From a virus (lineage: Duplodnaviria > Caudoviricetes): a DNA stretch of 35,747 nucleotides. Positions 1,252 through 32,408 of this stretch are shown here, one piece after another (positions within the stretch are counted from its first letter, which is position 1; every line of letters begins with the position of its first letter). The notes below the pieces were generated by a model, which had not been told where the DNA came from, made no database searches, and saw only the letters and a program-made list of their open reading frames with translations. Location of the stretch: the IMG/VR virus record IMGVR_UViG_3300033067_001185, positions 1-35,747 of that record; one strand, written 5' to 3'. Both the position numbers and the translations under genes were made by a program.

Positions 1252-2654
1252 TGACCCACAAGCCAACCCCAGAACAAGACGCAATCCTCACCGCCGTCGC
1301 TTCCTCCTCGGCCAACCTCATGCTCGTAGCCCGCGCAGGCTGTGGCAAAACCTCCACCCTCAAACTCATCGATTCCACCCTCCGTTCCGCCGCGCTCCTC
1401 GTCTGCTTCAACAAATCCATTGCCGAAGACGCGCGCAAGGAAGTCCGCTCCACCACCACAGTCAAAACCTTCAACTCCCTAGGCCACTCCATCTGGGCCG
1501 AATACCATGGCCGCAAACTCACCCTCAACAAGAACAAACTCCGGGACATCTACAAAGCCTTCGCCGACGATGCCCCACGTTCCGACCGATCATTCCTTTG
1601 GTCTCTCTACGACTCCGTTACCGCTGCCATCAACATGGCCCGAGCCATCGGCTATATCCCACCTACCCACGCCCTCGCCCGCAAGGCCATCGCCACATGG
1701 TCCGATGTCGAACGGCGCCTTGATGAAACCCCACTCCCCGAAGTCCAAGCCATCGCTGATAAGCTCCTCAACCTCTCCATCGCCCAAGCCTATGCCGGGG
1801 TCATCGACTTCAACGACCAAGTCTACATGCCAGCCCTCTTTGCCGGTCACTACCCCTCCTTCCCCATGGTGATGATCGATGAATACCAAGACCTCTCTCC
1901 TGTCAACCACGCGATGGTTTCCAAGCTCTGCCGAAATTCTCGCCAGATCGGCGTCGGCGACCCAGCCCAAGCCATCTACGAATTTCGCGGCGCAGATTCC
2001 AATGCCATGGCCCGAGCCACAAACCAGTTCTCCATGGACACCTATCCTCTCTCCCTCTCCTTCCGATGCCCCTCCGCCATCACCTCTAACGTCCATTGGC
2101 TTGTCCCCGACATTCGTTCAGTCCGTGATGGAGGAACTATATCTCACGGGGGTAGCTTGGACCTGCGACCAGACACTGCTGTCATCTGCCGATACAACGC
2201 TCCCCTTGTCCGCCTCGCCCTCGAGACCTTGGTCTCCGGCACCCGAGTCGACGTAGCTGGCGTCGATATCGGCTCCCGAATAATCCGCCTCCTCGAAAAA
2301 CTCGGCCCAACCTCCCTCACCCGATCCCAAGCCCTCGACGCCATCGCCAACTGGGAAGCCGAACGTGAATCTCTTGACTCCAAAACCGCCCCTGACCTTG
2401 CCGATTGCATGCGAGTCTTCGTCTCCAAAACCCAAACCCTCGACGGCGCAATCTCCTACGCCCAGCACCTATTCTCCTCCTCCGAAGGCGAAATCCGATT
2501 CTTCTCTGGCCACCGAGCCAAGGGCCTGGAATTCGATCATGTCTATCATCTTGACCATGAATCAATTAAAACCACCGGCCAAGACCCAAACATCCACTAC
2601 GTGATCGACACCCGGCCCAAAGAATCCTTGACCTATATCAAATCCCACCACTAG
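1251..2654 (+). CDS. UvrD/Rep-like SF1 DNA helicase
   Basis: ARAGCGKTST (Walker A), IDEYQD, VGDPAQAIYEFRGA, SFRCP, HRAKGLEFD, YVIDTR motifs. Confidence 0.9.
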   Translation: MTHKPTPEQDAILTAVASSSANLMLVARAGCGKTSTLKLIDSTLRSAALLVCFNKSIAEDARKEVRSTTTVKTFNSLGHSIWAEYHGRKLTLNKNKLRDIYKAFADDAPRSDRSFLWSLYDSVTAAINMARAIGYIPPTHALARKAIATWSDVERRLDETPLPEVQAIADKLLNLSIAQAYAGVIDFNDQVYMPALFAGHYPSFPMVMIDEYQDLSPVNHAMVSKLCRNSRQIGVGDPAQAIYEFRGADSNAMARATNQFSMDTYPLSLSFRCPSAITSNVHWLVPDIRSVRDGGTISHGGSLDLRPDTAVICRYNAPLVRLALETLVSGTRVDVAGVDIGSRIIRLLEKLGPTSLTRSQALDAIANWEAERESLDSKTAPDLADCMRVFVSKTQTLDGAISYAQHLFSSSEGEIRFFSGHRAKGLEFDHVYHLDHESIKTTGQDPNIHYVIDTRPKESLTYIKSHH

Positions 2655-3364: not shown

Positions 3365-3570
3365 GCGACGTTGACCTCCTGATGGACCTCGATCCACTCT
3401 CTCTATCCGACGCCGACATCGACGCCATCGTCGCCTACCACCGCAACATCCGCGCGAAGAAGGCCGCTGGCGAAAAGCCCACCAAGACCAAGGTCGATGT
3501 TTCCTCGGCTGTCTCCTCGATCCTCAACAAGATCAAGCCTGCCGAAACCAAACCAGTCCGGAGAATCTAA
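3361..3570 (+). CDS. Hypothetical protein (acidic N-terminus, basic C-terminus)
   Basis: Coupled on both sides (ATGA, TAATG). Confidence 0.7.
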   Translation: MSDVDLLMDLDPLSLSDADIDAIVAYHRNIRAKKAAGEKPTKTKVDVSSAVSSILNKIKPAETKPVRRI

Positions 3571-3728
3571 TGTCCGCCGTTCTCTGCGCCATCTGCGATC
3601 GCCTAGTCAACTCCGACGATGATCCCGATGGCTTCTATGTCCGCGGCTACGACGACAAATTCGTCTGCGAATTCTGTCGAGATGGCCTTGGCTCAACACT
3701 AGACTCCGAGGAAGACTCCAATGACTGA
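3570..3728 (+). CDS. 52-aa CxxC...CxxC zinc-finger protein
   Basis: Not in ORF track. MSAVLCAICDRLVNSDDDPDGFYVRGYDDKFVCEFCRDG...; GGAG SD, TAATG coupling. Confidence 0.65.
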   Translation: MSAVLCAICDRLVNSDDDPDGFYVRGYDDKFVCEFCRDGLGSTLDSEEDSND

Positions 3729-4722
3729 CCTCTCCCCCGACCACCTCACCGTCGGCTCCACTTCCCCATTCCTCCCCGGCACCAACATCCAGTTCGCTTG
3801 GGATTCCACCTCCCTTGGCTATCTCAAAACCTGCCCACGCCTCTACCAATACATCATGATCGAAGGCTGGGGCTCTGCCGCCGAATCCATCCACCTCCGG
3901 TTCGGCATCGAGTATCACTCCGCCCTCCAAAACTACGACATCATCCGTGCCGAAGGAATCCCCCATGAAGATGCAGTCCATCGTGTGGTTCGAGACCTCC
4001 TCGTATCTTCGGCGGATTGGTCTCCTGATCGAGAGTCGCGTGCTGGCAAGTACAAGAACCGTGACACTCTGCTGTCACTTGTGGTCGATTACTTGGATCA
4101 TTTCGTTGACGATCCAGCGCAGACCCTTATCATGTCCAACGGAAAGCCGGCAGTGGAGTTGAGCTTTAGGTTTGAGCTTGACTGGGGGCCGAATGGTTGG
4201 CATCATGGTGATACATACACTAATGCCGATCCCCAACCCTATCTCCTCTCCGGCCACCTCGATCGAGTCGTCGAATTCAACGACCATCTCTTCGTCATGG
4301 ACCACAAGACCACCACCACAACCCCGGGCCAGTACTACTTCCACCAGTACGAACCCAACAACCAAATGACCCTCTATACCCTCGGAGGCCAAGTCGTCCT
4401 TAATTCCCCAATCAAGGGCGTCATCATCTCCGCGGCCCAGATATTGCTGGATAAGGAAAACCGCTTCGTCCGAGGCTTCACCTACCGAACCCAAGACCAA
4501 ATCGAAGAATGGCTCAATGACCTGCGCATCTTGTTGCAAACTAATGAGAGTTATGCGGACGCCAACTACTGGCCTATGAACGACACCGCCTGCGACAAGT
4601 TCGGCGGCTGCCGATTCCGTGAGGTCTGTTCCAAAACCCCCGAGGCCCGAGCGATGTTCCTCAAAACCGATTTCACCAAACTAGAGGAGTCCGAACGATG
4701 GAATCCCCTGAGAAGCCGGTAA
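3721..4722 (+). CDS. PD-(D/E)XK exonuclease, Cas4/AddB-like with Fe-S cysteines
   Basis: CPR near N-terminus, GHLDRV, DHKTT, QMTLY, C-terminal CDKFGGCRFREVC. Confidence 0.85.
   Translation: MTDLSPDHLTVGSTSPFLPGTNIQFAWDSTSLGYLKTCPRLYQYIMIEGWGSAAESIHLRFGIEYHSALQNYDIIRAEGIPHEDAVHRVVRDLLVSSADWSPDRESRAGKYKNRDTLLSLVVDYLDHFVDDPAQTLIMSNGKPAVELSFRFELDWGPNGWHHGDTYTNADPQPYLLSGHLDRVVEFNDHLFVMDHKTTTTTPGQYYFHQYEPNNQMTLYTLGGQVVLNSPIKGVIISAAQILLDKENRFVRGFTYRTQDQIEEWLNDLRILLQTNESYADANYWPMNDTACDKFGGCRFREVCSKTPEARAMFLKTDFTKLEESERWNPLRSR
3965..4162 (+). CDS. Candidate nested (+1 frame) 65-aa protein inside the nuclease
   Basis: GAAGGA 3952-3957, ATG 3965; coincides with loss of C3 bias in the host frame. Confidence 0.4.
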   Translation: MKMQSIVWFETSSYLRRIGLLIESRVLASTRTVTLCCHLWSITWIISLTIQRRPLSCPTESRQWS

Positions 4723-4901
4723 GCCTACCTAGCTGGCTTCGCTGGCCCCCGAACTGTTGCGAAACCTGCGTCGGCTGGGAACGCCACGACACCTACACCG
4801 GCCGATGCCAAAAGCATAACTCCCTAGATGTCTCCACCATCACCGACACCCGCTATCGTTGCCCAGCATTCCAAAGGAAACCTGACAATGCCAAGCCTTA
4901 G
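4698..4901 (+). CDS. Small Cys-rich (CxxC..C..C) protein
   Basis: GAGGAG SD; NCCETCVGW...GRC...RCPAF; bridges the nuclease and ATPase genes. Confidence 0.6.
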   Translation: MESPEKPVSLPSWLRWPPNCCETCVGWERHDTYTGRCQKHNSLDVSTITDTRYRCPAFQRKPDNAKP

Positions 4902-5742
4902 CAACCACCAATCCAACTCCAACACCAAGCTCCTCCTCCTCGGCGATGCCAAGTCCGGTAAGACCGGGTCCCTCGTGTCCCTTGTCAAGGCTGGATACAA
5001 ACTCCGCATCCTTGACATGGACAACCTCCTCGACATCCTTAAGTACAAAATCCTCGAGGAATGCCCAGACAAAATCGACAACGTAGAGTTCGTCACCATC
5101 CGTGACAAATACAAAACCGGCCCAGCAGGGAGCATGATCGATGGAAAACCCCGCGCATGGATGGACGCTATTAAAATGCTCGATAACTGGAAATATGACG
5201 ACACTGATCTTGGAAAACCAGCTGACTGGGGGCCAGACTGTATCCTCGTCATCGACAGTCTCTCACGGCTTTGTGATGCAGCTTATGACTTCCATGAATC
5301 TATTATCCCGCGGGGGAAATCTGGGGATTACGATGGACGAGCAGTTTATGGAAATGCGCAAGACGATGTCGAAAAAGTCCTAGCAATGCTAACCTCCCGC
5401 GGCATGGCCACCAACGTCATCGTCATCGCCCATGGCAACTACATGGACCTGCCGGATGGCACCAAGAAAATCTTCCCGCAGGGCGTCGGCCAAAAGCTCT
5501 CCCTCCGCATTCCCCAATACTTCCCCAACTACGTCCGCTACCGTAACAAGAACGGCAAGCGAACCATCCAACTCGAATCCGATCCCATGATCGACCTTGC
5601 CAACACTCGGCCGGGGTTCCTCAACAAGGAACTCGACATCTCCACCGGCCTTGCAGAGTTTTTCGGAGCACTCCGTGACGGTGCCCCGAAAACGGCGGAA
5701 TCCCCCGCCAAGCCTAAGTCTGTCACACTCATCCGCAAGTAA
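4888..5742 (+). CDS. AAA_24/Sak4-like recombination ATPase
   Basis: LLLLGDAKSGKTGS Walker A, LVIDSLS Walker B, IVIAH; AGGA SD before ATG 4888; between nuclease and SSB-like gene. Confidence 0.8.
   Translation: MPSLSNHQSNSNTKLLLLGDAKSGKTGSLVSLVKAGYKLRILDMDNLLDILKYKILEECPDKIDNVEFVTIRDKYKTGPAGSMIDGKPRAWMDAIKMLDNWKYDDTDLGKPADWGPDCILVIDSLSRLCDAAYDFHESIIPRGKSGDYDGRAVYGNAQDDVEKVLAMLTSRGMATNVIVIAHGNYMDLPDGTKKIFPQGVGQKLSLRIPQYFPNYVRYRNKNGKRTIQLESDPMIDLANTRPGFLNKELDISTGLAEFFGALRDGAPKTAESPAKPKSVTLIRK
5141..5383 (+). CDS. Candidate nested (+1 frame) 80-aa protein inside the Sak4-like ATPase
   Basis: GGGAG 5128-5132, 8 nt, ATG; ORF limits match an A/T-ending codon patch in the host gene. Confidence 0.5.
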   Translation: MENPAHGWTLLKCSITGNMTTLILENQLTGGQTVSSSSTVSHGFVMQLMTSMNLLSRGGNLGITMDEQFMEMRKTMSKKS

Positions 5743-5754
5743 GGAAACTCAACC

Positions 5755-6198
5755 ATGTCCAACACACCCAACTTCGCATCCATCCTCGACGAAGCTCCCT
5801 CTGAAGTCGATCGCCCGAAGCCCCTCCCTGCTGGCACCTACACCTGCATCGTCGCTGGGACCCCGATCTACGACAAGTCCTCCAAGAAAGGCACCCCGTT
5901 CGTTCAGTTCACCCTCAAGCCCATCTCGGCAGAGTCCGACGTTGACGAGGAAGACCTCCACGAAATGGGAGGCTTCGAAAACAAGACCATCCGCGCGACC
6001 TACTACCTCACCGAAGACGCAGTCTTCCGCCTCGATGAGTTCCATCAGCATTGCGGCCTTGACCTCGGGAAGGAACAGTCCCGGCGCCAGCGCAATGACG
6101 AGGTCGTCAACTGTGAGGTCCGCGCGGTAGTCAAGCACCGTACCTCGGACGACGGCTCGCAAATCTTTGCCGAACTCGCCCGCACTCTCGCGGCGTGA
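5755..6198 (+). CDS. Phage SSB-like protein (DUF669-like)
   Basis: PLPAGTYTCIV...SKKGTPFV pattern; position after the Sak4-like ATPase. Confidence 0.7.
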   Translation: MSNTPNFASILDEAPSEVDRPKPLPAGTYTCIVAGTPIYDKSSKKGTPFVQFTLKPISAESDVDEEDLHEMGGFENKTIRATYYLTEDAVFRLDEFHQHCGLDLGKEQSRRQRNDEVVNCEVRAVVKHRTSDDGSQIFAELARTLAA

Positions 6199-6204
6199 TC
6201 TACC

Positions 6205-6235
6205 TTGGGAGGGGCTTCGGTCCCTCCCAACTTTT
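6205..6235 (+). terminator. Intrinsic terminator / stable hairpin after ssb
   Basis: TTGGGAGGGGC-TTCG-GTCCCTCCCAA stem with cUUCGg tetraloop followed by CTTTT. Confidence 0.75.
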
Positions 6236-6245
6236 GGAGGGGCCA

Positions 6246-6422
6246 ATGTCACCGGAAGAATTCGCCAAGCTACCGATGCAGATAGTTATCACCTTTACCG
6301 ACAATCAATACAAAGTCACCATCATGTCCGCGGTCTCAGTTACTGATGTCCAATACTACGATTCATTCGAAGAAGCCGTTTCCTTTATCCGCGCCCACGC
6401 CACCGCATTGAGGTCGTCATGA
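6246..6422 (+). CDS. Hypothetical 58-aa protein
   Basis: GGAGG SD before ATG 6246; ATGA overlap downstream. Confidence 0.6.
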   Translation: MSPEEFAKLPMQIVITFTDNQYKVTIMSAVSVTDVQYYDSFEEAVSFIRAHATALRSS

Positions 6423-6529
6423 AATACGACATCGCAGGACTCATCGGCACATGCACCGGAACCTTGGCCAGAGGCTTTTTCTGGGGTGCTGGCTTTATCC
6501 TCGCCGTTAAACTTATAGGCTTCCCATGA
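6419..6529 (+). CDS. 36-aa small membrane protein
   Basis: Not in ORF track. MKYDIAGLIGTCTGTLARGFFWGAGFILAVKLIGFP; GAGG SD; ATGA overlaps at both ends. Confidence 0.6.
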   Translation: MKYDIAGLIGTCTGTLARGFFWGAGFILAVKLIGFP

Positions 6530-6657
6530 GCAAGAATCATCCAGTCGGCAAAGCCTTCGACAAACTCGCCCGAAAGACTCTCGATAAGAAAGCTCATAAG
6601 CGAGCAATTAAGGCGGCTAAAAAAGCCAAACAAGGACGGAAGGTTATTTCCAAATGA
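6526..6657 (+). CDS. 43-aa very basic (Lys/Ala-rich) protein
   Basis: Not in ORF track. MSKNHPVGKAFDKLARKTLDKKAHKRAIKAAKKAKQGRKVISK; ATGA overlaps at both ends. Confidence 0.55.
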   Translation: MSKNHPVGKAFDKLARKTLDKKAHKRAIKAAKKAKQGRKVISK

Positions 6658-7754
6658 AACCCATCTTCCTCCTTGGCGAAGCCCCCGGCGAACTCGAGGT
6701 CCGCCTAGGCCGCCCCTTCGTCGGCCCATCCGGCATCGAACTAATCCGCATGCTCGGCGAATCTGGCCTTATCACCCTCACCACCTTCGACCGAGACTAC
6801 ATCCATCGCTACTACACCACCAACGACCCATCCGCAATCGCCGCGATCTGGGACCTCCACCCCGAAGTCTATCGCACCAACGTCTTCTCCACCCACCCAC
6901 CCCGCAACGACATTGAATACTTCTGTGGCCCACGCGCCGAAGGCATCCCCGGCTTCCCGGCCCTGCTCAAGTCCAAATACGTCCGAGGAGAATTCGAACA
7001 TGACCTCGATCGACTGGCTGATGATCTACTTCGCCTCGACCCAAATCTTGTTATTTGCCTCGGTAATTCTGCTATCTGGGCTCTTGCTGGTCGGACAGGT
7101 ATCACCAAACTCCGCGGCACTACTCTTCTCAGCACTCATACTGTTGCTGACTTTAAGCTACTTCCCACTTATCATCCCTCTGCTGTCCTTCGCCAGTGGG
7201 AACTCCGCCCCACCGTCATCGCCGACTTCATGAAAGCCGCCCGCGAATCCGCCTACCCCGAAATACGGAGACCGCCCCGTGAAATCTGGATCGAACCCAC
7301 CCTTGCTGATATCCGCCATTTCATCGTTGAACACATCAACGAATGCAAACTCCTTTCTGTCGATATTGAAACAGCTGGACACCGCGTCACTTGCATTGGC
7401 TTCGCTCCCAACCCACACCTTGCGATTGTTATTCCTTTCGATGACGAGCGAAGAAAGAACGGATGCTATTGGCCGACTGCACAGGATGAACTTGCATGTT
7501 GGCGCCTTGTCCGATCTGTTCTTGGCAATGCAAAAATCCCAAAGCTCTTCCAAAATGGCCAATACGATGTAGCTTTTCTTTGGCGCGCATATGGCATCCC
7601 TACATATGGCTGCGCTGAAGATACAATGCTACTTAGCCATGCTTTACAACCTGAATCACTAAAGGGCCTAGGATATTTAGGCTCACTATATAGTGATGAA
7701 GGCAGCTGGAAACATATGCGAAAGAAAACTGAAACTATTAAGAGGGACAACTGA
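6654..7754 (+). CDS. Uracil-DNA glycosylase (family 4/SPO1-Pol type) fused to the N-terminal part of a PolA 3'-5' exonuclease
   Basis: GEAPG, PFVGPSG, RTNV, YHPSAVLR (UDG); VDIET (ExoI), FQNGQYD (ExoII), EDTMLL; ExoIII absent. Confidence 0.85.
   Translation: MKPIFLLGEAPGELEVRLGRPFVGPSGIELIRMLGESGLITLTTFDRDYIHRYYTTNDPSAIAAIWDLHPEVYRTNVFSTHPPRNDIEYFCGPRAEGIPGFPALLKSKYVRGEFEHDLDRLADDLLRLDPNLVICLGNSAIWALAGRTGITKLRGTTLLSTHTVADFKLLPTYHPSAVLRQWELRPTVIADFMKAARESAYPEIRRPPREIWIEPTLADIRHFIVEHINECKLLSVDIETAGHRVTCIGFAPNPHLAIVIPFDDERRKNGCYWPTAQDELACWRLVRSVLGNAKIPKLFQNGQYDVAFLWRAYGIPTYGCAEDTMLLSHALQPESLKGLGYLGSLYSDEGSWKHMRKKTETIKRDN
7000..7233 (+). CDS. Candidate nested (+1 frame) 77-aa two-TM membrane protein inside the UDG domain
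   Basis: GAGGAG 6985-6990, ATG 7000; two long hydrophobic segments; host T3 rises from about 3/64 to about 35/64 codons (hand count). Confidence 0.65.
   Translation: MTSIDWLMIYFASTQILLFASVILLSGLLLVGQVSPNSAALLFSALILLLTLSYFPLIIPLLSFASGNSAPPSSPTS
7279..7572 (+). CDS. Candidate nested (+1 frame) 97-aa protein inside the exonuclease domain
   Basis: GGAG 7267-7270 (host codons CGG AGA), 8 nt, GTG 7279; host codons shift to A/T endings. Confidence 0.5.
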   Translation: MKSGSNPPLLISAISSLNTSTNANSFLSILKQLDTASLALASLPTHTLRLLFLSMTSEERTDAIGRLHRMNLHVGALSDLFLAMQKSQSSSKMANTM

Positions 7755-8215
7755 TGGCTATAATCACCTTAACTAAAGGCTTCGTCACTTATATAGACGA
7801 TGATCTATATGAAGAATTGAATCAGCATAAATGGCATGCGGCTGGTATAGAAGGCCGACCTGCGAGACGACGAATTTCTGATAGAAAGATAATATTCATA
7901 TATCACCAAATTTTAAATGTATTACCTTGGGAACTACGCCAACAAGGTCTCTGTGTAGATCATATAAACAACGATCCTTTAGACAATCGACGATTGAATC
8001 TTAGAGTTGTATCTGTATCAGAAAATAACAGAAATAAATTCAAAGGTCGCGCTGGTATAGGTTTTGATGGCACCCACAACAAATACAAAGCTTATCTTGA
8101 CCGAGACGGATATAAGCGACTAAACATAGGTACATTCAAGCATCGAATAGATGCCGAACGAGCTTTATATCAAACCAAAAAGGAACTTGATCTTGAAGAT
8201 AATAAAGACTCATGA
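7754..8215 (+). CDS. Free-standing HNH homing endonuclease with AP2-like C-terminus
   Basis: VDHINNDPLDNRRLNLRVVSVSENNRN; YKAY...NIGTF...AERA; AT-rich; TGATG coupling. Confidence 0.85.
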   Translation: MAIITLTKGFVTYIDDDLYEELNQHKWHAAGIEGRPARRRISDRKIIFIYHQILNVLPWELRQQGLCVDHINNDPLDNRRLNLRVVSVSENNRNKFKGRAGIGFDGTHNKYKAYLDRDGYKRLNIGTFKHRIDAERALYQTKKELDLEDNKDS

Positions 8216-9692
8216 AGCCAATCCCGAAGACTTCACAGACTTCGAAAGGGACTGTGTTTACAACGGCCTCGACGTTTGCGTTACCCATGACTGCTTCGCG
8301 GCCATGTCCCCCCAACTCGACCCTATCTCCACCGCCACCTACGAATTCTCCAAAGCCCTCCAAGGCCCAACCCTCGAGATGCGCTGCCGCGGAGTCCTAG
8401 TCGACCAAGCCCGCAAGGCCGAAGTCATTGACGAATACTTCGAAGCCATCGAACACCTCGAAGCCAATCTCAACCGCATTGTCTTCGAAGGCGTAGGCCT
8501 TCTCACCTTCAACTGGCGATCCCACGCAGACCTACGGAGACTCTTCTATGACACCCTCGGCCTCCCCATCGTCCGCAAAGCCGGCCGACCAACTACGGAT
8601 CGAGCCGCCCGAGAGAAGCTTTCCCTCTACCCCATCGCCCAGCAACTTGTTGCACATATCAACGCTCTTACAGAACTTGGTGACAAAATTTCGGTCCTAC
8701 GAACTGAAATCGATCCAGATGATAGAATACGAACGAGCTATAATATCGCTGGAACCAGCACAGGTCGATTCTCTTCGAGCTTCTCTGAATTCGGAACAGG
8801 TGGAAATCTACAGAACGTTGAGGAATCTCTCCGCAGCATTTTTATCTCAGACCCCGGTACTAAGTTCGCCAAGTTCGATGCCAAGTCCGGAGAGTCCTTC
8901 TGCGTCGGCGCCATAGAATGGAACCTATTCCAAGACGGGAGATACCTCGATGCCTGCGAATCTGGTGATCCTCACACTGCCGTCGCGCGAATCTGTTGGC
9001 CTTCTTTGCCTTGGACCGGAGATATTAAACAAGACAAACATCTCGCTGAGTCACCATACTATCGTCACTATACCTACCGATTCATGTGTAAAAAGCTGGG
9101 CCATGGTTCAAACTACGGTGGAAAGCCTCAGACACTTTCTGAACAAGCGAAGCTCCCGCTTGAAGTCGTTAAGCAATTCCAACCGAAGTATTTCGATGCC
9201 TTCCCTGCGCACCAGCAATGGCAAGCTTGGGTCGACGAGCAACTCCGCCGAAAGGGATACCTAACTTCCCTCCTCGGCCGACGCCGCTGGTTCTTCGGCC
9301 GACGCTCTGACAACTCCACCCTCCGCGAAGCCATTGCCTACGATCCCCAGTCCTCCCTTGCCGATATCGTCAACACCGCTATGCTCAAAATCTGGCGCAT
9401 GGGAATCGCCACCGTTATGATGCACGACCACGACGCTCTCACCTTCCAATACCCTGAACGCGACGAAGACAAGATCATCCCTATCCTCCAAGAAAACCTT
9501 ATCGTCCCGGTAGAACTGGCTGGTGGCCGTATTCTCCGGATTCCTTATGATTGCAAGACAGGGTGGAACAAAGGTGAATATGATGACCAAAAGAACCCTA
9601 ACGGGCTCAAAGACTACTTCGGCCACGACAGCCGGAAACGGCAAAAGACGTCTGGAATCTTGGATCGAGTCGTTCGTCGAGCAGACCGCTAA
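8193..9692 (+). CDS. polA: DNA polymerase family A, C-terminal polypeptide (ExoIII plus polymerase domain)
   Basis: YNGLD (ExoIII), TGRFSS, NLQNV, DAKSGE (motif A), RFMCKKLGHGSNYG (motif B), HDAL (motif C); AAGGA SD 8180-8184 favours TTG 8193 over ATG 8151. Confidence 0.9.
   Translation: MKIIKTHEANPEDFTDFERDCVYNGLDVCVTHDCFAAMSPQLDPISTATYEFSKALQGPTLEMRCRGVLVDQARKAEVIDEYFEAIEHLEANLNRIVFEGVGLLTFNWRSHADLRRLFYDTLGLPIVRKAGRPTTDRAAREKLSLYPIAQQLVAHINALTELGDKISVLRTEIDPDDRIRTSYNIAGTSTGRFSSSFSEFGTGGNLQNVEESLRSIFISDPGTKFAKFDAKSGESFCVGAIEWNLFQDGRYLDACESGDPHTAVARICWPSLPWTGDIKQDKHLAESPYYRHYTYRFMCKKLGHGSNYGGKPQTLSEQAKLPLEVVKQFQPKYFDAFPAHQQWQAWVDEQLRRKGYLTSLLGRRRWFFGRRSDNSTLREAIAYDPQSSLADIVNTAMLKIWRMGIATVMMHDHDALTFQYPERDEDKIIPILQENLIVPVELAGGRILRIPYDCKTGWNKGEYDDQKNPNGLKDYFGHDSRKRQKTSGILDRVVRRADR
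8548..8916 (+). CDS. Candidate nested (+1 frame) 122-aa helical protein inside polA
   Basis: GGAG 8536-8539 (host CGG AGA), 8 nt, ATG; amphipathic core LLHISTLLQNLVTKFRSYELKSIQMIEYERAII over an A/T3 patch. Confidence 0.55.
   Translation: MTPSASPSSAKPADQLRIEPPERSFPSTPSPSNLLHISTLLQNLVTKFRSYELKSIQMIEYERAIISLEPAQVDSLRASLNSEQVEIYRTLRNLSAAFLSQTPVLSSPSSMPSPESPSASAP
8950..9264 (+). CDS. Candidate nested (+1 frame) 104-aa protein inside polA
   Basis: GGGAG 8937-8941 (host GGG AGA), 8 nt, ATG; A/T3 patch about 8950-9200. Confidence 0.5.
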   Translation: MPANLVILTLPSRESVGLLCLGPEILNKTNISLSHHTIVTIPTDSCVKSWAMVQTTVESLRHFLNKRSSRLKSLSNSNRSISMPSLRTSNGKLGSTSNSAERDT

Positions 9693-10827
9693 CATCCATT
9701 CCCCGGCGATCTTCCGTCGCTGGTCAGCAATCTCCACCCTTGCCGCGGTACTTGAACAAAAGGTCTGGGTCAAGACCGCTCGGCCGATGTACCCAAACAT
9801 GTACGTGTTCCTCGTCGGCCACCCCGGCGTCGGCAAGACCCGGACCATGCGCGAAGGTACCTCCTACGTCCGCGACCTCCCCGACTTCCACCTTGCCCCA
9901 ATCTCCATGACCTTCGCATCCCTTGTCGATTCCCTCGTCAAGGCCAAGCGCTTTATCGCCCGCCCAACCGAAGACCCGCTAGAGTACAATTCCATGTACA
10001 TCGCCGCCGACGAACTCGGAACCTTCGTCCATAAATACGACAACGAAATGATCGACGGGCTCTCTGCCTTCTACGACCCCGATCCCTACCAACAAGTTCG
10101 CCGAACCTCCGACGTCAACATCAAGATCAAATCCCCACAACTTAACATCCTCTGCGGCACCACTCCCCAGAACCTAACCGACTTCATGCCCGAGAAGGCT
10201 TGGGGCCAAGGCTTTACCTCCCGGCTTATCATGGTCTTCTCTGACGAACGCATCATCGGCGATGACTTTGCCCCGGTCGAATCCTCCCATTCCGTTGACC
10301 TTCTCCATGACATTGAAATCATCAACGGCATTATTGGTGAGTTCCAAGTCACCGATCAATACCGCAAAGCGGTCAACGATTGGCGCCAACTCGGTGAGAC
10401 CCCAGTCCCCAACCATCCCAAGCTCATCCACTACGTCACCCGCCGGCGAGCGCATCTCTACAAGATGTCCATGATATCCGCTATCGACCGAAGCAATTCC
10501 CTGATCCTCACCAAGGACGACTTCAACCGCGCCATGGGCTGGCTCCTAGAAGCCGAAGACACCATGATCGAAATCTTCAAGGCCGGGGCTACCAATGCCG
10601 ACGCTGCGGCTATGGAAGAAATCATTCACTTCATCAAAATCAACGACCGAGGCTTTGGGGTCTCGGAACAGAAAATCACCCGGTTCGCTAGCGACCGGAT
10701 TCCACTTCACTCAATCCTTCGGGTTATCGAAATCATGGAACGTAGCGGGCAGATACACCTCAAGGGCCGGGATAAGGTCACCAAGCTCCGCTACTACTCC
10801 ATTGGCGAATCACTTGCTGGGGGTTAG
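9580..10827 (+). CDS. DUF3987-like P-loop ATPase (putative replicative helicase), no primase domain
   Basis: LVGHPGVGKT Walker A, IAADELG Walker B, GFTSR; AAGGTG SD before ATG 9580; overlaps the polA 3' end. Confidence 0.75.
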   Translation: MMTKRTLTGSKTTSATTAGNGKRRLESWIESFVEQTANIHSPAIFRRWSAISTLAAVLEQKVWVKTARPMYPNMYVFLVGHPGVGKTRTMREGTSYVRDLPDFHLAPISMTFASLVDSLVKAKRFIARPTEDPLEYNSMYIAADELGTFVHKYDNEMIDGLSAFYDPDPYQQVRRTSDVNIKIKSPQLNILCGTTPQNLTDFMPEKAWGQGFTSRLIMVFSDERIIGDDFAPVESSHSVDLLHDIEIINGIIGEFQVTDQYRKAVNDWRQLGETPVPNHPKLIHYVTRRRAHLYKMSMISAIDRSNSLILTKDDFNRAMGWLLEAEDTMIEIFKAGATNADAAAMEEIIHFIKINDRGFGVSEQKITRFASDRIPLHSILRVIEIMERSGQIHLKGRDKVTKLRYYSIGESLAGG

Positions 10828-11061
10828 GGTAAAGTGCCCAACCACCCAGTTCACCGCCGTGCCGATCAGGCCTATGACCGTCCCCACAACCCAAACTGCT
10901 AGGTTCCGATCCTTGGTCAGCCCATCGATCTTAACTATCATCTTCTGTTGATTCTCAAGCGCCAAGGCGTTTGATTCCTTCAACTCCGTAATATCCGATT
11001 TGATATTACTAATCTCAGTCAGCGCAGTGATGACTTTGTCTCGGGTGTCTTGCTCAGTCAT
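10810..11061 (-). CDS. Coiled-coil protein with C-terminal TM helix (lysis-associated)
   Basis: MTEQDTRDKVIT...LAVWVVGTVIGLIGTAVNWVVG; ATGA coupling to the o-spanin. Confidence 0.6.
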   Translation of the reverse strand: MTEQDTRDKVITALTEISNIKSDITELKESNALALENQQKMIVKIDGLTKDRNLAVWVVGTVIGLIGTAVNWVVGHFTLTPSK

Positions 11062-11282
11062 TTCATCCCCCAACCACAAAGAGACTTTCCCACCGCGTTG
11101 TGTTCTTTGATCTGCACAATTGTCTTCGGCGTATCGGCCTTGGACCAATAAATCGCCTGTCCAACTACACAGAACGGAGCATCAGTCCCGCCGGAACCCG
11201 TCGTCGTCAGGCACCCTGCCGGGGTTACGCTCAGCATCAGCGCGAATATCTTCGCGGGCTTTGAGTGCTTTCCTAATTGCAT
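11058..11282 (-). CDS. o-spanin (Rz1-like) lipoprotein
   Basis: Signal plus AGC lipobox, C...WSKADT...HNA...C; overlaps the i-spanin in another frame. Confidence 0.7.
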   Translation of the reverse strand: MQLGKHSKPAKIFALMLSVTPAGCLTTTGSGGTDAPFCVVGQAIYWSKADTPKTIVQIKEHNAVGKSLCGWGMK

Positions 11283-11412
11283 TGGATTGAGTCTCCAATT
11301 CTTGGGCAACCTGCGAAGCTTTCCCCGCATCGAGCATCTGCCGATCATGAAGCCACTGGGTGAAGACACCCAGCAGCTTCACAACGGCCAGGACAAGGCC
11401 CAGCCAATCCAT
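11182..11412 (-). CDS. i-spanin (Rz-like)
   Basis: N-terminal TM MDWLGLVLAVVKLLGVF then helical periplasmic part; overlapped by a lipoprotein ORF. Confidence 0.7.
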   Translation of the reverse strand: MDWLGLVLAVVKLLGVFTQWLHDRQMLDAGKASQVAQELETQSNAIRKALKAREDIRADAERNPGRVPDDDGFRRD

Positions 11413-11413
11413 G

Positions 11414-11596
11414 TTACGACGAGACGCCTGTGACCGAGGCATCCTTGCCAAAGATCAGGCCGATGCCCGCGGCGATGGAAATCGACTGATTCCCTTCCAC
11501 GCCCGGGATGTGAATCCCAAACATTGACGCAATCGACAGGGCAATGATCACCACCCCAGCCAGTGTCGTTTTCCAGTTCGTCAATAGATTCTGCAT
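11414..11596 (-). CDS. Holin-like two-TM protein
   Basis: NWKTTLAG...GLIFGKD pattern; AGGAG SD; in the lysis cassette. Confidence 0.7.
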   Translation of the reverse strand: MQNLLTNWKTTLAGVVIIALSIASMFGIHIPGVEGNQSISIAAGIGLIFGKDASVTGVSS

Positions 11597-11605
11597 AGGT
11601 TTCTC

Positions 11606-11689
11606 CTATCGCCAGAAGATCATTACCAAAAGCATCGTGCTGGCGACACACGCTGCTAACCAAAACTTATCTTTGACGCTCTCACGCAT
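11606..11689 (-). CDS. 27-aa single-TM peptide
   Basis: Not in ORF track. MRESVKDKFWLAACVASTMLLVMIFWR; TGATG coupled to the endolysin. Confidence 0.5.
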   Translation of the reverse strand: MRESVKDKFWLAACVASTMLLVMIFWR

Positions 11690-12168
11690 CAGCCGACCTT
11701 GGCATACTGAAAGTGCATCGCATCACGACGACCTTTCCAGTCCCCGCCCCAGACCCAGCCTTCTTCCTTGAAGGCCCCGACCACAAGGGAGTCCGGCTTG
11801 AACAGAGTTCTATCAACCGGAGCCCCCAGCGGATTCGCCGGGGCATTGATATCAACAGCCAAGGCATACGAATGCATCGAGAGAGTCTTCCCTCCACGGA
11901 TCGGCCGCCCGCCGGGGTAGTACGATCCTGAAAAACAATCACAGCCAGCATGATGAATCGCACCCTGCGCATGATCGCACCGATCCCAGATTTTCTTAAT
12001 CACCGCCGCGAGCGAATCCGCAGCGACCTTGTTGATCGGGATAACCCGAATCGGCGTCGGGCCCATGGACATATTCCACGACACCGGAACCCGGACTACG
12101 TTCTTAGCCTCCCAGCCTTTGGCTGTAGGATCGCCAAAGAGGGACGCGCATTGAGATTGGAGTATCAT
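11689..12168 (-). CDS. Endolysin, peptidase M15 (L-Ala-D-Glu peptidase-like)
   Basis: SMHSYALAVD, WGGDW, DAMHFQ; GGAG SD; TGATG coupling. Confidence 0.85.
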   Translation of the reverse strand: MILQSQCASLFGDPTAKGWEAKNVVRVPVSWNMSMGPTPIRVIPINKVAADSLAAVIKKIWDRCDHAQGAIHHAGCDCFSGSYYPGGRPIRGGKTLSMHSYALAVDINAPANPLGAPVDRTLFKPDSLVVGAFKEEGWVWGGDWKGRRDAMHFQYAKVG

Positions 12169-15100
12169 CAGTATTCTCCTTTCCAATACTCTTCAAAGGA
12201 CTGCGAATGTTTCTTAGTCGTGCCATACCTAGCACCAACCAACCACTGCCAAGCATTATCTGGGTTTTCTTCCTCAGTACCAACGTCATGAGCGAATCTC
12301 ATAATCCGCCCAGCCTGCAAAGGCATCAACCCAGTCATAGCTCCCACAAAGAACGCGCTGTCTTGCAGGAACTTTCCTCGGTTGGATTCATCAAACGCAT
12401 CTTCCTTGTGAATATCTCGCCACCAATTCGTGGTCGCCTGATACGCTGTACCAGTCAGACCAAACTGCGGATCGCGGCCAGATACCAATCCGTGGGTCAT
12501 ATCACGAACACCGACCCAACTGGACCCAAGAGTAAACGCCAATTGAATCGCAGCTTTCTTGGCCCAAGGATCGTCTTCATCGTGGACCTCTGGCGAGACC
12601 ATACTTTCCACAATCGCTGGCCAGATCACATAGGCAAACGCACCACCAGCTACGATCTTGCTCCAAGCCAATCCCTTCGCCAGCGACCCGCCGTCAGTCA
12701 ACTTTGCAGCTTCGCCAGCCCGCCAAATGGTTTCCACCTGCCGATTCATAATCTCAGACCAGAAGTTATACACCGCAGTCAGCCACGGAGTGACGTTCCG
12801 TTGAATGGCCGTGCGATTGGTACTAGCCGTGGACCCATGTGCCCTGCGGACAGACCTATCTGCCTCAAACACCGCATCGCCATGACTAGCTCCGTTCTCA
12901 ATCTCTTCATGATACTTCGCCAGCCATGTCGGCACAGCAGACATCATATCCGACAGCGCTACTGGTTTTGATCCCCATTCCATAATCCGCTGCCGCCAAG
13001 GCGCGTACTTATCGCCCGGGGTCAACCCTGCCTCAACGCCATAAAGGCTCTCCTGCCAATTCCTATCCCTGCGCTGAAGTTCAAGCGAATTATCAACTGC
13101 AAACTTCCAAGCAGTCTCGGCAGTTTCACTGTTGAGGTTGAACAACCCCTTGACCCAATGCGCGAACTTCTCAGAATTGACCCCAAAGAATTTCGGGATA
13201 AAGTCCCCAGCACCGATTTCTTTCATAGACAACCCAAACGCTGTCGGGCCGTGCTTCATAACCGTTCCGGGGTTGAACCCGATCAATGTTGAAATCATAT
13301 TCTGGCGAATGAATTCACTTGCCACAGATATCGCCTGCTGATTCTTAGGGATGTAATTCTGTGAATTCGCAATCGACCGGAGCCAATCCAAAAGCCCATC
13401 ACGATATTCTGCGCCAAAGTGCTTGTAGATCGCATCACGAATTTCTTTATCCCTAAACACTTTCGTGGCATTAATCAACGCTTCTCTCGTTGCTGTATTA
13501 TGAATCTCCTGAGCCATTCGATTCGTCATCATATCCAGATCAAGCGACAACGGTCCGACATACCCAGTACGGTCCTTAGTATGCGCAGCATTCGGCAGGG
13601 TATTCGTGTAGTTATCAAAGAACAACGGGTCCTTGCCCATGAGCTTCTTTGACGTACCTTCAAACTCCGGATGAGCGATGATCGGATAGTACCCACCTTC
13701 GGCAACTTGCCTGCCCTGCAAATCTAGTACCGGCCGCACAGGTATCGACTTCGGCGCAATGCCCGACGCATGACGATACATTCTATCCGAATTATCTTTT
13801 AGCTCCTTAAATATATCCCAGATGCCTTGGACAAAATCCCACTCATCTGGCCGAGCGTGTTTGAATACCCACTCTGCAACTTCAGGGACCTGTAGTCCAT
13901 GGCCCTCAGCAATCCGCTTCATATTATAATCATTACCCATGTTAAGCATAACCGTCAGCAGATTCTTTCGCGTAAACGGTATAGCATCACCAGTCGCTGG
14001 GTTCCGGAACAGATTGTTCTCAATGGTCCGGTCGATGCCTTCTGGCGTACCTAGAGCCTTGATCTTCTTTGCGACTGTCGATCGCATAACATCGGATTCA
14101 TTCACCGAATTGATCAAATCTCTTAGAACATATTGCGTCCAAGTTCCCTTGGAATCAAAGCTATCCCAACGACCGAAGATATTCTCCATCTGAAGATGGT
14201 TGACGAAGTACGTCATCGGCAGCTTGCTGATCTTTCGTAGATGCGTAGCGGTTTCGCCAAAGGCAGAATCAACCACTCCTTGGATTAGCTTCTCTCTAAT
14301 CTCCACAAAGTCAGCTTCCTTACCAGCAGAATAAAGTTTTTTCTCACTCCGTCCATTGTGTACCAACGTATCTATCGAAGCCTTTACTGCACGGAAGTCT
14401 TCAACCGAAAGCTCGCCGCGTTCCTTAGCCCAGCTTGGGTCAAACAACTGTTCCCAAACATCCATCACTCGGCCGTCACCTTGCTTGGACGCCACAAAGC
14501 TTTCGAGGTTCTTACCCGACTCGCCAGCCGCAATCTCCTTTGCGATATCCGCCGGAGTACGATTTATCTTATACCCAATTCGCTGAAGGATATCGTGGAT
14601 ATGGTTATTATATTCCGCATCAACACTCGGCACTTCGCGTTTACGGAATTGCTTAGCTGTTCTGTCCAAGCTAGCAATGTCCTTTTCCAACTTCATGGCC
14701 TGTGCCGCCATCAAGCCAGTAAGATACTTCCGCTCCATCGCCCGTACCGCATCGGCAGGCTTCCCGGCGATTAGCGTCCGCTCGGCATCCCGTCCAAGCT
14801 TGAGCATCTGTGACATCAACCGAGACCTATCCACCTCGCCAGCTGCCATCTTAGAGAACATCTGCTCAGCAACCTGCTTCGCAAAGTCCTTATCCACCAC
14901 CTCGATCCCGGCCTGCATCGCCGCACCCTGCCACTCCTCCGCGAGGATATTCAGGTTTGTCTCGCTTAGCGCTTGATCCCGCGCCTCCAGCATAATATTC
15001 TCATCAAGCTTCCCGTACTGGGCTTCCATTTGACGCTGGACTTCATCCTCAGTCACCTTCTTAAGTTGCTCCAACGGCGTCCGACCTTCTTTCGCCGCGT

Positions 15101-17933: not shown

Positions 17934-20092
17934 TATTCAGATTCCCTACGGTTCGGCATTTGCGGGGCTTTGGTAGATTTACCATACGTCTTGGTGTATA
18001 GCTTCGCGGCGTAGACTTGCTGAATCTGCTTCGCCGTCGGCTGTAGCCCCGGGTTGTCTTTTTGAATCTCAGCAATAATCCCGGGGATTTTGCTCGTCGG
18101 CACAGGAACCTTGGTCGGGATATCCGATCCTTTCCAGAAATTCCCAAACACCGTTCCAGGGTGGCTGATCTTGGTCAACAGGTTCTGGCCGATAGCCCGA
18201 ATCTCATCAGGCGTAATAGGCTTCTTGGTTTCTGTCATCTGTTGTTCAATCAGCAACTTCGCGGTGCCAATAAATTTATAATACTCATCTTTGTTCTTGC
18301 TCTTATTGATCTTCACTCGATCCATAGTATCGCCAAGCTCGTTCAACACCTTTTCCACCGTAGTGTCTTTATACGAGGCCTTCAATGCCTTTCGTTGTAG
18401 ATCAACCAGCTGATCGATCTGATGGTGAGGCAATGGCAGAGTCTGGGGATCAATCTTCCAGATGCCCTTGGCATCTTCATCAGACTTTCTCGAATCGAGA
18501 ATCTGTCCAACGTACTTCTGGAACATAGCCTGATTCTCAGGTGTCTCAGTGTATCCGCCAATCGCATTCTGCGTCAACCTCGCCCGGAACTTTTCCTTGT
18601 CTACATTCGTGAGCCTGTCCCAAGCCTGTGCAACTTTAAGATCGTTGAAGTCTATCTGTGTCGGCAGCTTCCCATCCGGCGCAGGAGCCAACGCTTGATT
18701 GATCGTATTCAACGAATCAACCCGCTGCTCTCGTTGAATCTGCATATCAGCAGCATGATCCGTACGGACCTTATGCGAAAACACATCTTCGAATTCTAAA
18801 TCTCCGGGGGCAATTGATTTCGATACCCGGCGAGCTACGTTATCAACCTCTTCCACAGAAGCATTCTGCGCCAGCTTCCTGCCGACCTTTTGCATATATT
18901 GGGCTTCGGTTTCGCCGGAGGCAAGGTCCTTACCACCAAGCCCTCGCCAGCGCTTGATAGCTTCATTCGCAGTCCCATTCTGCGTTTGATATTGATTAAA
19001 CTTAAACCAAGCAAGATCGTCCTGTGCCTTGGGATTGGCCAAGAATTCCTGTTCGGTCATTGGCTTCATCCCAGCTTCCTTAAGCCAAGGCTGAAGATTC
19101 GATTGCATAATCCCATAAGCCCCAAGGCCGTGTTCGGTAACGGTCTCGCCATTGACCTTATGAGTAACATCCGGATGAATCTGATTGTAGTTATCAGAAC
19201 TCTCAACTCCACGAAGCGCGGACAAAGCTCGAGTTCTAGACAAGGTTCCTTGGCCCCAAGCATCGCTATCGCCAGACATCAACTTGGCAGTTTCAATCCG
19301 GGTTGATACATTCAAGTTCTGGGTACGAAGGAACCTTGCCGCACGACCGGCCTGCTCAGAATTGATAATCCCTCCTTTCATTGCTTGATCTAGAAACTTC
19401 TGTGCTGCCCTAGGCTGTTCTAGCCCAAGCGCAGTTGCTCGCTTGAAGACCAAGCCAGATTTCATATCCTTGATCTTTTGGTCAGTCTCAACGTCAGAAA
19501 GCCCACCGACAGTTTGGATCATTGATCGGCTGCCGTCGATTTCCTTAATCGCCGCTCGATAAGAATTCTCATCGGCAGGTGAATTAGCTGACCCATCAAT
19601 AAACGATTGAATCTTAGCGGTCTGAGCGCCTACAATGAATTTCTTGTTCTGATCGCCCATATGGGCCGCAGCCGAGAACACCGACCGAGCTTGGATGCTC
19701 CGAGACTCTTGGAGATAAGTCTTTCGAGCATATTCCGAAGTCAGGCCGTTACCAATGGACTCGCGAGTGGAATTTAGATCGTCAATATATGGCTGATATC
19801 CCTTGACCGCAGCATTTCCTTCAAGGCTTCGGTAGTTCGCATACTTCTCGCCCATCGCGGTGGTGAACTTCGCAACCGCCTCGGCAGCTTCCGCCTGCTG
19901 ATTAAGCTGCTGCATCGCAATGGCCCGGGCGTAGAGCTCATTCCCGGTCTTGTCAAACGCCCCACCCAGCCGCTGGGTTGCCTCAGCCGTCGCCCCACCG
20001 AACGCAGCCAGCGGCGTGTCGATGTGCTCATACGGCGTCCCGCTCTGCTCCGGGGTGACTGTCGGAGCGCCAGTGTAAGGTACCTGTGCCAT
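17933..20092 (-). CDS. Ejection protein with lysozyme/transglycosylase-like domain
   Basis: GVESSDNY...GLGAYGIM motif; TAATG coupling. Confidence 0.7.
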   Translation of the reverse strand: MAQVPYTGAPTVTPEQSGTPYEHIDTPLAAFGGATAEATQRLGGAFDKTGNELYARAIAMQQLNQQAEAAEAVAKFTTAMGEKYANYRSLEGNAAVKGYQPYIDDLNSTRESIGNGLTSEYARKTYLQESRSIQARSVFSAAAHMGDQNKKFIVGAQTAKIQSFIDGSANSPADENSYRAAIKEIDGSRSMIQTVGGLSDVETDQKIKDMKSGLVFKRATALGLEQPRAAQKFLDQAMKGGIINSEQAGRAARFLRTQNLNVSTRIETAKLMSGDSDAWGQGTLSRTRALSALRGVESSDNYNQIHPDVTHKVNGETVTEHGLGAYGIMQSNLQPWLKEAGMKPMTEQEFLANPKAQDDLAWFKFNQYQTQNGTANEAIKRWRGLGGKDLASGETEAQYMQKVGRKLAQNASVEEVDNVARRVSKSIAPGDLEFEDVFSHKVRTDHAADMQIQREQRVDSLNTINQALAPAPDGKLPTQIDFNDLKVAQAWDRLTNVDKEKFRARLTQNAIGGYTETPENQAMFQKYVGQILDSRKSDEDAKGIWKIDPQTLPLPHHQIDQLVDLQRKALKASYKDTTVEKVLNELGDTMDRVKINKSKNKDEYYKFIGTAKLLIEQQMTETKKPITPDEIRAIGQNLLTKISHPGTVFGNFWKGSDIPTKVPVPTSKIPGIIAEIQKDNPGLQPTAKQIQQVYAAKLYTKTYGKSTKAPQMPNRRESE

Positions 20093-25003: not shown

Positions 25004-25509
25004 GGCAGCCTCCCATGTTCTCCATGGAATTGAAGGATAGCATCTTGTGCTGCTTCAACTGCGTCTTCCATATCAGAATAGCAGCCAATATGCAAACCAG
25101 ACACGCGAACTCTGAACTTACCCGAAGGCAAGATGTCAATGCACTTTATTCCAGATGAACTATTGCATTGTGCATTTCTATTGAACATATTTTGTTGATG
25201 GGTAACTTTTCTAAGATTGTCCCATGAGTTATTGAAATGACACAAATCTATATGATCTATTTCATCGTCATCAGTTAGGATATCATCAGCTACCATTGCA
25301 TAGATAATGCGATGGACAGCATAGCTAATTCCATTCAACCTCACACCAAGTCCGTTAGAATTTGGCGTACCGACTACCTTCCCGGCAAATCTAGAGTTGA
25401 CGCATGCAGGTACATCATCACGAGATTTCCAATAAAGATCACCAGATTCAGGATCGTAAGTGAACGTCCTATTCAGGTATTCTTTGGAAGGTAGTCGATT
25501 AGCCTTCAT
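24991..25509 (-). CDS. Free-standing HNH homing endonuclease with AP2-like C-terminus
   Basis: YDPESGDLYW, HRIIYAM, IDHIDLCHFNNSWDNLRKVTHQQN, HIGCY...AVEA...FHGE; AT-rich. Confidence 0.85.
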   Translation of the reverse strand: MKANRLPSKEYLNRTFTYDPESGDLYWKSRDDVPACVNSRFAGKVVGTPNSNGLGVRLNGISYAVHRIIYAMVADDILTDDDEIDHIDLCHFNNSWDNLRKVTHQQNMFNRNAQCNSSSGIKCIDILPSGKFRVRVSGLHIGCYSDMEDAVEAAQDAILQFHGEHGRLPLLP

Positions 25510-32263: not shown

Positions 32264-32408
32264 CGGTCGCTCGCTTAAGTTCAGGGCTCGGCTCGAATTT
32301 ACCTTCCCCATGCATCTGCGCTGCGGCCATCGCAAGGTAGGTGGGGTCTACCTGAGGCGGCTGCTGAGGCTGGGTTGCGGTCCGTTTACGGATAGGAACT
32401 ACCGGCAT
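32244..32408 (-). CDS. 54-aa hypothetical protein
   Basis: Not in ORF track. MPVVPIRKRT...YLAMAAAQMHGEGKF...; fills the gap before the portal. Confidence 0.55.
   Translation of the reverse strand: MPVVPIRKRTATQPQQPPQVDPTYLAMAAAQMHGEGKFEPSPELKRATDDKASK

Follow-up and report, generated by a model that had tools for sequence, protein, structure and literature searches.

In this study, a 35,747-nucleotide (nt) stretch of DNA from an uncultured podovirus-like phage (IMG/VR record IMGVR_UViG_3300033067_001185, positions 1 to 35,747; hereafter the window), which holds most of the phage genome, was analysed for genes nested in the +1 frame of its early replication genes. It is very likely that extra +1 frames, no fewer than two and probably five to seven in number, have been selected to stay open family-wide; they would be translated from their own Shine–Dalgarno (SD) sequences into small accessory proteins. 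Judged from sequence comparison, selection is certain for open reading frames (ORFs) C and D and graded for the others. All six to seven nested ORFs fall in a stretch of about 7 kb, where they take up 37% of the length of four core genes. They are listed below with their lengths in amino acids (aa), start codons and SD motifs, the number after each motif being the spacing to the start in nt.

3965–4162, + strand: ORF A, 65 aa, ATG with AAGGA+7, +1 frame in the nuclease gene; the weakest candidate
5141–5383, + strand: ORF B, 80 aa, ATG with GGAG+8, +1 frame in the Sak4-like gene
7000–7233, + strand: ORF C, 77 aa, ATG with AGGAG+9, +1 frame in the uracil-DNA glycosylase and 3′–5′ exonuclease (UDG-exo) gene; predicted membrane protein with one or two transmembrane (TM) helices
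7279–7572, + strand: ORF D, 97 aa, GTG with GGAG+8, +1 frame in the UDG-exo gene; predicted amphipathic three-helix protein and the strongest candidate
8548–8916, + strand: ORF E, 122 aa, ATG with GGAG+8, +1 frame in the polymerase gene
8950–9264, + strand: ORF F, 104 aa, ATG with GGAG+8, +1 frame in the polymerase gene
10262–10474, + strand: ORF G, +1 frame in the primase gene; a seventh ORF added here, with an SD in relatives and none in the window

ORFs A–F had been proposed in a first-pass annotation, made from the letters of the window alone, as genes overprinted on larger "host" genes. All six were found at the coordinates given there, in the +1 frame of their host genes. The SD said to precede each start by 7–9 nt was present in every case, and a T-ending host codon supplied all six starts. 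The SDs had also been described as built from a particular set of scarce host codons. This held for five starts but not for 3965, which uses GAA GGA, and of the codons concerned AGA was scarce (7 of 169 Arg codons), whereas CGG (23 of 169) and GGG and GGA (19 and 28 of 158 Gly codons) were only moderately so. The reported preference for C-ending codons outside the patches was borne out: C occupied 1222 of 1777 informative third positions (0.69) outside the six ORFs, and 17/56, 22/68, 29/71, 35/81, 50/106 and 29/77 inside ORFs A to F (0.30–0.47). Synonymous shuffling, suggested as a check, gave a mean of 0.35 and a maximum of 4 nested SD-started +1 ORFs of at least 60 aa in 1000 shuffles of seven early genes; the observed number was 6. 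The picture of sharply bounded patches, one per ORF, was recovered in part by a two-state hidden Markov model. For 3965, 5141 and 7000 the 5′ edge and the start were at most 20 nt apart, but for two others the edge lay downstream of the start, by 74 nt (7279) and 38 nt (8548), and ORFs E and F were merged into a single patch, 8586–9266. In the same model, the patches over 3965 and 7279 extended beyond the ORF stops, to 4230 and 7754. Additional patches poor in C-ending codons were found at 2094–2180 and at gene ends.

Relatives were collected by five scans, which gave 187 loci. After filtering, the family sample contained 86 nuclease, 94 Sak4, 93 UDG-exo, 85 polymerase and 60 primase genes, together with 53 SSB and 27 helicase genes. 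Near-copies and relatives at 89% identity or more were excluded from the family statistics. One locus, L186, passes at about 1400–1890 from the UDG gene into different sequence, which reads like what we take to be a membrane transporter; it was treated as chimeric and excluded from the tree, intact-frame, hydrophobicity and +1-identity analyses. Expected counts kept the amino acids fixed and drew codons at the frequencies of the genome concerned.

The number of +1 stops in the relatives was counted over the six annotated intervals, which had been fixed without family data. As overprinting predicts, stops were depleted over five of them (observed/expected 0.21–0.64), with 3965–4162 reaching only 0.92. 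The counts were 130/141 for A, 122/191 for B, 124/215 for C, 43/200 for D, 154/274 for E and 72/131 for F; the interval of ORF G had 65 stops against 137 expected. Within the ORF cores the ratio was 0.14 for D, 0.32 for E (20 vs. 62), 0.33 for C (56 vs. 169), 0.42 for F, 0.45 for G, 0.58 for B and 0.70 for A. Outside the cores it was 1.03 (4128/4009), and whole-gene totals were near expectation in the nuclease (871/857) and primase (887/867) genes. No stop depletion was found in the cores for the other four alternative frames, antisense and +2 included, all of which were at 0.84 of expectation or more. Stops accumulated right after the cores, with 160 vs. 106 at 7194, 52 vs. 26 at 7554 and 100 vs. 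39 at 4126. In the terminase gene, used as a late-gene comparison in 55 relatives, 662 +1 stops were counted against 675 expected, with a weak local dip only.

When measured against the usage of each genome itself, the third-base shift towards T and A occurred at the same positions in about 90 divergent genomes. Richness in third-position T (T3) alone could reduce +1 stops; therefore, the context of the next base was examined. A-ending Leu, Val and Ile codons (NTA) were avoided only where the next base completes a +1 stop, with odds ratios of 0.11–0.43 in the cores of A–G. The odds ratio was 1.02 outside the cores, and Ala, Pro, Thr and Gly controls gave 1.2–2.0.

All six starts, named from the window alone, recurred with an SD in relatives above the codon-shuffle null. 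Recurrence was 16 vs. 5.5 for A (n = 86), 13 vs. 2.6 for B (n = 94), 24 vs. 5.4 for C, 31 vs. 0.7 for D, 7 vs. 1.5 for E and 15 vs. 1.3 for F. At position 10262, the start of ORF G, 22 SD-starts were observed against 1.8 expected in 60 primase genes; AAGGA+9 is kept there in relatives L160–162, and the SD has been lost in the window. The T of the start codon was selected at positions 7278 (49 vs. 19) and 10261 (46 vs. 24). A low-kinship subset was formed from relatives with at most 70% aa identity to each other, in which 4-fold sites were near saturation (0.29–0.36 vs. 0.28–0.29). Here an open core together with an SD start was found for D in 38 of 50 relatives (0.9 expected), for C in 24 of 51 (1.5), for E in 23 of 38 (1.3) and for G in 11 of 30 (0.6). 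The values for A, B and F were 14/47 vs. 6.2, 7/35 vs. 1.4 and 6/39 vs. 0.9. Five of eight control windows gave 0 or 1. Further +1 SD-start positions were enriched in relatives and absent from the window, at 8299, 8341 (15 vs. 1.5 expected) and 8899 in the polymerase gene and at 6925 and 6940 in the UDG gene; such sites are candidate lineage-specific nested ORFs.

ORF D was open in 85 of 89 relatives. Its fixed third bases, T or A, followed the pattern of a helix, several columns reaching 74–82 of about 90 against 22–34 expected (82/90 vs. 24 in one example). The same kind of column signal was given by the overlap of the polymerase and primase ends at 9645–9681, which served as a positive control. 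The hydrophobic moment was 1.90 vs. 1.54 expected, and the predicted structure had three helices (pLDDT 88). The start of ORF D differs by lineage (7261, 7279, 7315, 7324 or 7327) while the core persists. A quick tree built from 90 UDG-exo proteins required 13 changes for the 7279 start, and the lineages lacking this start mostly use one of the other four. Therefore, selection for a protein fits better than selection for a fixed nucleotide element.

The core of ORF C had T3 at 1.69 times expectation, and the conserved third-base T places leucines in two stretches. The KD19 hydrophobicity of helix 1 was 1.71 against 0.26 expected; of 92 relatives, 63% reached at least 1.6 in helix 1 and 50% did so in helix 2. 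An AlphaFold model showed two helices (pLDDT 73). ORFs C and D were never continuous in 89 relatives.

The host frames matched Pfam and PHROG families, whereas the nested frames matched none at a meaningful level. The host frame is taken to be the older one because it is homologous to enzymes in distant phages. The six window ORFs gave no matches to Pfam or PHROG. Among 75 ORF C members searched against PHROGs, no family was matched by more than 2, and matches to ORF C in the ESM Atlas were at 0.78 or below. For 85 ORF D members, Pfam and PHROG searches gave scattered weak matches, the best recurrent one being PF24769 in 7 of 85, below the cut-off. The ORF D profile had no match in a PDB sequence search, the ESM Atlas gave no usable match, and Foldseek with the ORF D model found none in PDB or BFVD at E 0.001 or better. 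VIA-align gave a best Z of 6.9 to generic helical hairpins, which is uninformative. When 5.8 billion predicted proteins were searched with the ORF D profile, within the range of 37–144 aa only, four matches were obtained, all resembling the D frame and one identical to the product of relative L106. Such a yield, for a frame open in nearly all relatives, agrees with the earlier expectation that standard gene callers miss nested ORFs.

Among the remaining ORFs, ORF E has a conserved core at about 8692–8830, and relatives often begin at 8692 or 8719. ORFs E and F are mildly amphipathic and form one continuous frame in 17 of 74 relatives. ORF B stays open in L160–162, in which most synonymous differences of the Sak4 gene cluster in 4920–5400. 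Stops in A, B and F are scattered over many positions. Just past ORF A, at 4171–4230 (+) of the nuclease gene, relatives are shifted to third-position T and G with no +1 stop depletion, a possible cis element; two promoter-like matches lie at 4106–4206.

Several results weigh against reading these ORFs as selected genes. The core limits for the stop and intact-frame tests were set after the family profile had been viewed, and over its full interval ORF A showed little stop depletion. Three of the eight control windows were above the null (8/42 vs. 0.6, 5/51 vs. 1.2 and 3/34 vs. 0.1); therefore, either the null is a little too permissive or there are additional ORFs specific to particular lineages. 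An SD start for C was scored in 46 of 95 relatives, so that about half have none, and mRNA folding around the starts was not weaker than average. The first-pass annotation had predicted reduced synonymous variation. ORF D showed it (0.232 against 0.346) and so did ORF A (0.264 against 0.347), but there was no reduction overall (0.341 inside vs. 0.340 outside, independent close pairs). In ORF E, host-synonymous divergence was even higher (0.454 vs. 0.315, close pairs), and it was not reduced in B, F and G; third bases are fixed in C and D. For C, E and F, the raw identity of the +1 frame (0.33–0.35) did not exceed that of control stretches (0.36–0.46). From the divergence and identity results it follows that, D excepted, selection seems to act on the open frame and its hydrophobic character more than on the precise sequence. 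Contigs of one RNA run (X18) cover 28 of 30 bins and show neither strand nor translation. No significant patch was seen in Kuura, the cultured phage most closely related to the window.

On balance, most of the outcomes named in the first-pass annotation as refuting its overprinting interpretation did not occur, and the interpretation was supported, if unevenly: strongly for 7279 and 7000, well for 8548, moderately for 8950 and 5141 and weakly for 3965. From these comparisons, ORF D is almost certainly a translated, selected gene, and ORF C can be regarded as one with nearly the same assurance. ORF E is likely such a gene, and so, by a slightly lesser degree, is ORF G in the family. ORF F is rather probably one, the balance tips slightly in favour of ORF B, and for ORF A the case falls a little short of even.

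It is quite possible, though short of an even chance, that only C and D, and perhaps E, are real, and that A, B, F and G represent recent, noisy or degenerating frames with low-level translation and no function. The near-expected stop count and modest intact fraction of A, the few intact frames of B and F, the scattered stops in A, B and F and the missing SD of G in the window would fit this. However, context-specific stop avoidance persists in A, B, F and G (odds ratios 0.18–0.43), and their starts recur above the null. Another explanation, considered in outline in the first-pass annotation, has the patches brought in by recombination or homing over conserved enzyme motifs; the donors would be lineages of other codon habit, and the ORFs a by-product of T3 richness. 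Mosaicism is real, since differences from L160–162 cluster in 4920–5400 and 7320–7750, and an HNH endonuclease gene adjoins the exonuclease. A tract origin is nevertheless highly improbable, as the T3/A3 shift recurs at the same positions in so many divergent genomes and SD-starts are kept and replaced; the next-base-dependent, +1-only stop avoidance largely refutes it.

Programmed +1 frameshifting, with SD-like motifs stimulating the shift, would likewise give +1 stop avoidance and amino-acid patterning. Its products would be shortened enzymes carrying new tails, such as a UDG anchored in the membrane. C lies within the UDG domain and D within the exonuclease domain, and a shift would cut these catalytic domains. 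The motifs stand at initiation spacing (7–9 nt) before an ATG or GTG whose T is selected, and the slippery-site search near the starts found no shared motif, only CCCCC at A and CCCCGA at D; frameshifting is thus very unlikely. It is no more credible that the patches are slow-codon or regulatory RNA or DNA elements (pausing, promoters, processing sites) instead of genes. Promoter-like matches in 3500–11000 exceed the shuffle (15 vs. 5.1), and some lie within patches, yet elements of this kind would not be expected to show stop avoidance confined to one frame, or a leucine/helix pattern there. All three of these last explanations (tracts, frameshifting, regulatory elements) are disfavoured because none predicts next-base-dependent stop avoidance together with selected start codons.

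If the ORFs are nested genes, they may have arisen by overprinting of an operon biased to third-position C (C3), a bias that keeps the +1 frame stop-poor. Synonymous changes would create an SD and an ATG or GTG out of a T-ending codon, and ribosomes would initiate internally on the early polycistronic mRNA. By anatomy and analogy, on which the functions proposed for C and D rest, ORF C is probably an inner-membrane protein made early, with a likely role in superinfection exclusion or another effect on the host envelope; superinfection exclusion itself is a tentative assignment. ORF C has the size and TM content of a holin (small, 1–3 TM helices), but it lies in the early arm and not beside the endolysin of the late lysis cassette. 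A role in lysis is considered less likely, because a separate lysis cassette ends the late arm. ORF D is likely a soluble helical-hairpin or coiled-coil protein that binds a host or phage replication protein.

A broader and more speculative possibility, held with less than even confidence, is that the +1 frame of the C3-biased replication operon is a standing nursery for new genes. C and D would be old and family-wide, and A, B, E–F and G would be born, fused or decaying by lineage; relatives at about 30% identity would have filled the same polymerase frame. If so, codon-skewed tailed phages would carry a substantial body of host-interaction proteins that annotations lack and that third-base patterns alone could reveal. 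In about 90 divergent genomes, the family offers candidate nested genes of every state (old, young, fused, decaying), next to one another within one set of essential genes, and this makes de novo gene birth by overprinting directly testable in a double-stranded DNA (dsDNA) phage. C and D add two putative protein families with no match in the libraries searched.

The host genes and their neighbours in the early arm are as follows.

1251–2654, + strand: UvrD helicase
3721–4722, + strand: PD-(D/E)XK exonuclease, host gene of ORF A (PF12705, 8e-14; phrog_1218)
4888–5742, + strand: Sak4-like single-stranded DNA (ssDNA) annealing ATPase, host gene of ORF B (PF13479; phrog_124, 2e-13)
5755–6198, + strand: SSB
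6654–7754, + strand: UDG-exo, N-terminal part of a split PolA, host gene of ORFs C and D (PF03167, PF01612, phrog_17)
7754–8215, + strand: AT-rich HNH homing endonuclease between both polymerase parts, not nested (PF13392, phrog_99)
8196–9692, + strand: DNA polymerase A, C-terminal part, host gene of ORFs E and F, with a TTG start assigned by inference (PF00476, 8.5e-32)
9625–10827, + strand: primase/helicase DUF3987, host gene of ORF G, whose exact start is not fixed and whose frame overlaps the polymerase 3′ end (PF13148, phrog_14296)

The terminase, portal, capsid, tail and internal proteins and the lysis cassette are all on the − strand of the window. The lysis cassette (11058–12186, −) has endolysin and Rz-like matches and a hydrophobic ORF of 60 aa. 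The HNH gene at 7754–8215 is one of three AT-rich HNH endonuclease genes in the window, the others being at 24991–25509 and 26253–26690; L160–162 give no alignment over the first. Near-identical DNA was found in 20 listed runs from 11 studies, labelled, where labels were given, as wastewater, river, freshwater, marine or viral metagenomes. Among genome contigs, one 1.8-kb contig in a Planktophila metagenome-assembled genome matched, and it is possibly mis-binned.

Other candidate small ORFs were observed in the window. A Cys-rich ORF of 67 aa at 4698–4901 (+), in frame +2, overlaps the nuclease 3′ end and is probably an ordinary small gene; its SD-start occurred in 47 of 86 relatives against 12.7 expected, and a PHROG scan gave no match. 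In the helicase gene, 1926–2285 (+) showed a T3 excess, 56 +1 stops against 85 and scattered SD starts in 27 relatives, and the corresponding window ORF (1879–2256) has no SD. Inside terL, a 70-aa +1 ORF at 33554–33342 (−) with AAGG begins at the edge of an AT3-rich segment, one with many A- or T-ending codons. The weak stop dip of terL in 55 relatives lies at codons 225–300; the ORF is a possible, unproven counterpart of T7 19.2/19.3. In a tail gene, a 51-aa +1 ORF with GGAG lies in an AT3-rich patch at 22062–21907 (−).

The third-base shift combined with an SD start is a simple signature, and it already flags candidates in other phages. The closest cultured relatives found were Caulobacter phage Kuura and Microcystis phage Mel-JY34, with 32–35% identity in UDG-exo. 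In Mel-JY34, an unannotated +1 ORF of 139 aa with AAGGA+8 coincides with its single AT3-rich polymerase segment (codons 101–258). Its T3 is 0.41 inside vs. 0.16 outside, and it maps to window 7032–7425, the C region and the start of D. The metagenomic phage ctMlz233, at about 30% identity, has two SD-started +1 ORFs in its polymerase gene (T3 0.32 vs. 0.12), the first of which starts at the codon equivalent to 8548, the ORF E start. A marginal third-base patch was seen in vir526, and no significant patch was found in Kuura, a Vibrio phage or a Desulfofustis phage. Kuura does contain a 182-aa +1 ORF with AAGGAGG+9 and GTG inside UDG-exo (6203–6751, +), with no significant third-base shift. Matches of the C and D profiles to +1 frames of distant polymerases were rejected as evidence, since homology of the host frame necessarily produces such matches, also in phages that have no patch. 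The long genes of eight genomes were scanned for nested SD ORFs of at least 50 aa with AT3 enrichment at p < 0.01. The scan gave 5 in the window, 2 each in ctMlz233 and phiKMV, 1 in Mel-JY34 and 0 in Kuura, BPP-1, phiV10 and T7; its null is lenient, as shuffling erases regional codon variation, and it misses the known cases of T7, which have no codon shift. The phiKMV ORFs are unannotated, SD-started and AT3-enriched: one of 300 aa in the RNA polymerase gene (18906–19808, +), and one of 111 aa with a hydrophobic stretch in gp37 (32029–32364, +).

Nested genes are classic in small viruses, annotated singly in T7 and skipped by gene callers. Kuura and Mel-JY34 have the same replication gene order as the window, but their records annotate no nested genes. 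The word "overlap" is absent from the main text of the Kuura paper (PMC9959647), and no mention of Mel-JY34 was found in the literature searched. That literature, with most subscription papers out of reach, yielded no report of a nested gene set in a tailed-phage replication module. In Pseudomonas phage Fc02, according to PMC9936078, olg1/olg2 and gene 10 are small overlapping genes, and a 7.9-kDa product gives superinfection exclusion. They differ from the window ORFs in lying in the lysis-lysogeny control region, partly antisense and outside replication enzymes. In phiX174, lysis gene E is nested in gene D, where host T3 becomes second-position T and gives a leucine-rich transmembrane protein (PMC8227390). 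ORF C resembles E in that host third-base T gives a leucine-rich TM stretch in the nested frame. The ssDNA genome of phiX174 has 5.4 kb and is rich in T3 throughout, whereas the window is dsDNA of more than 35 kb with a local T3 departure from a C3 background and a separate lysis cassette. A parallel in a podovirus is T7, for which RefSeq gives five nested or largely nested genes: 4.1 and 4.2 lie in the primase/helicase gene 4, 18.7 lies in 18.5, and 19.2 and 19.3 lie in the terminase gene 19. These five are on the same strand, in the +1 frame of core genes, with an SD-like motif before each start. They are spread over 40 kb with two in replication genes, and no sequence relation to the window ORFs was found; for the window ORFs, family-wide selection was shown. 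The nested genes of the window are thus of a known kind, as in T7 and phiX174; what is unusual is how densely they are packed (37% of four core genes) and that they are conserved across the family.

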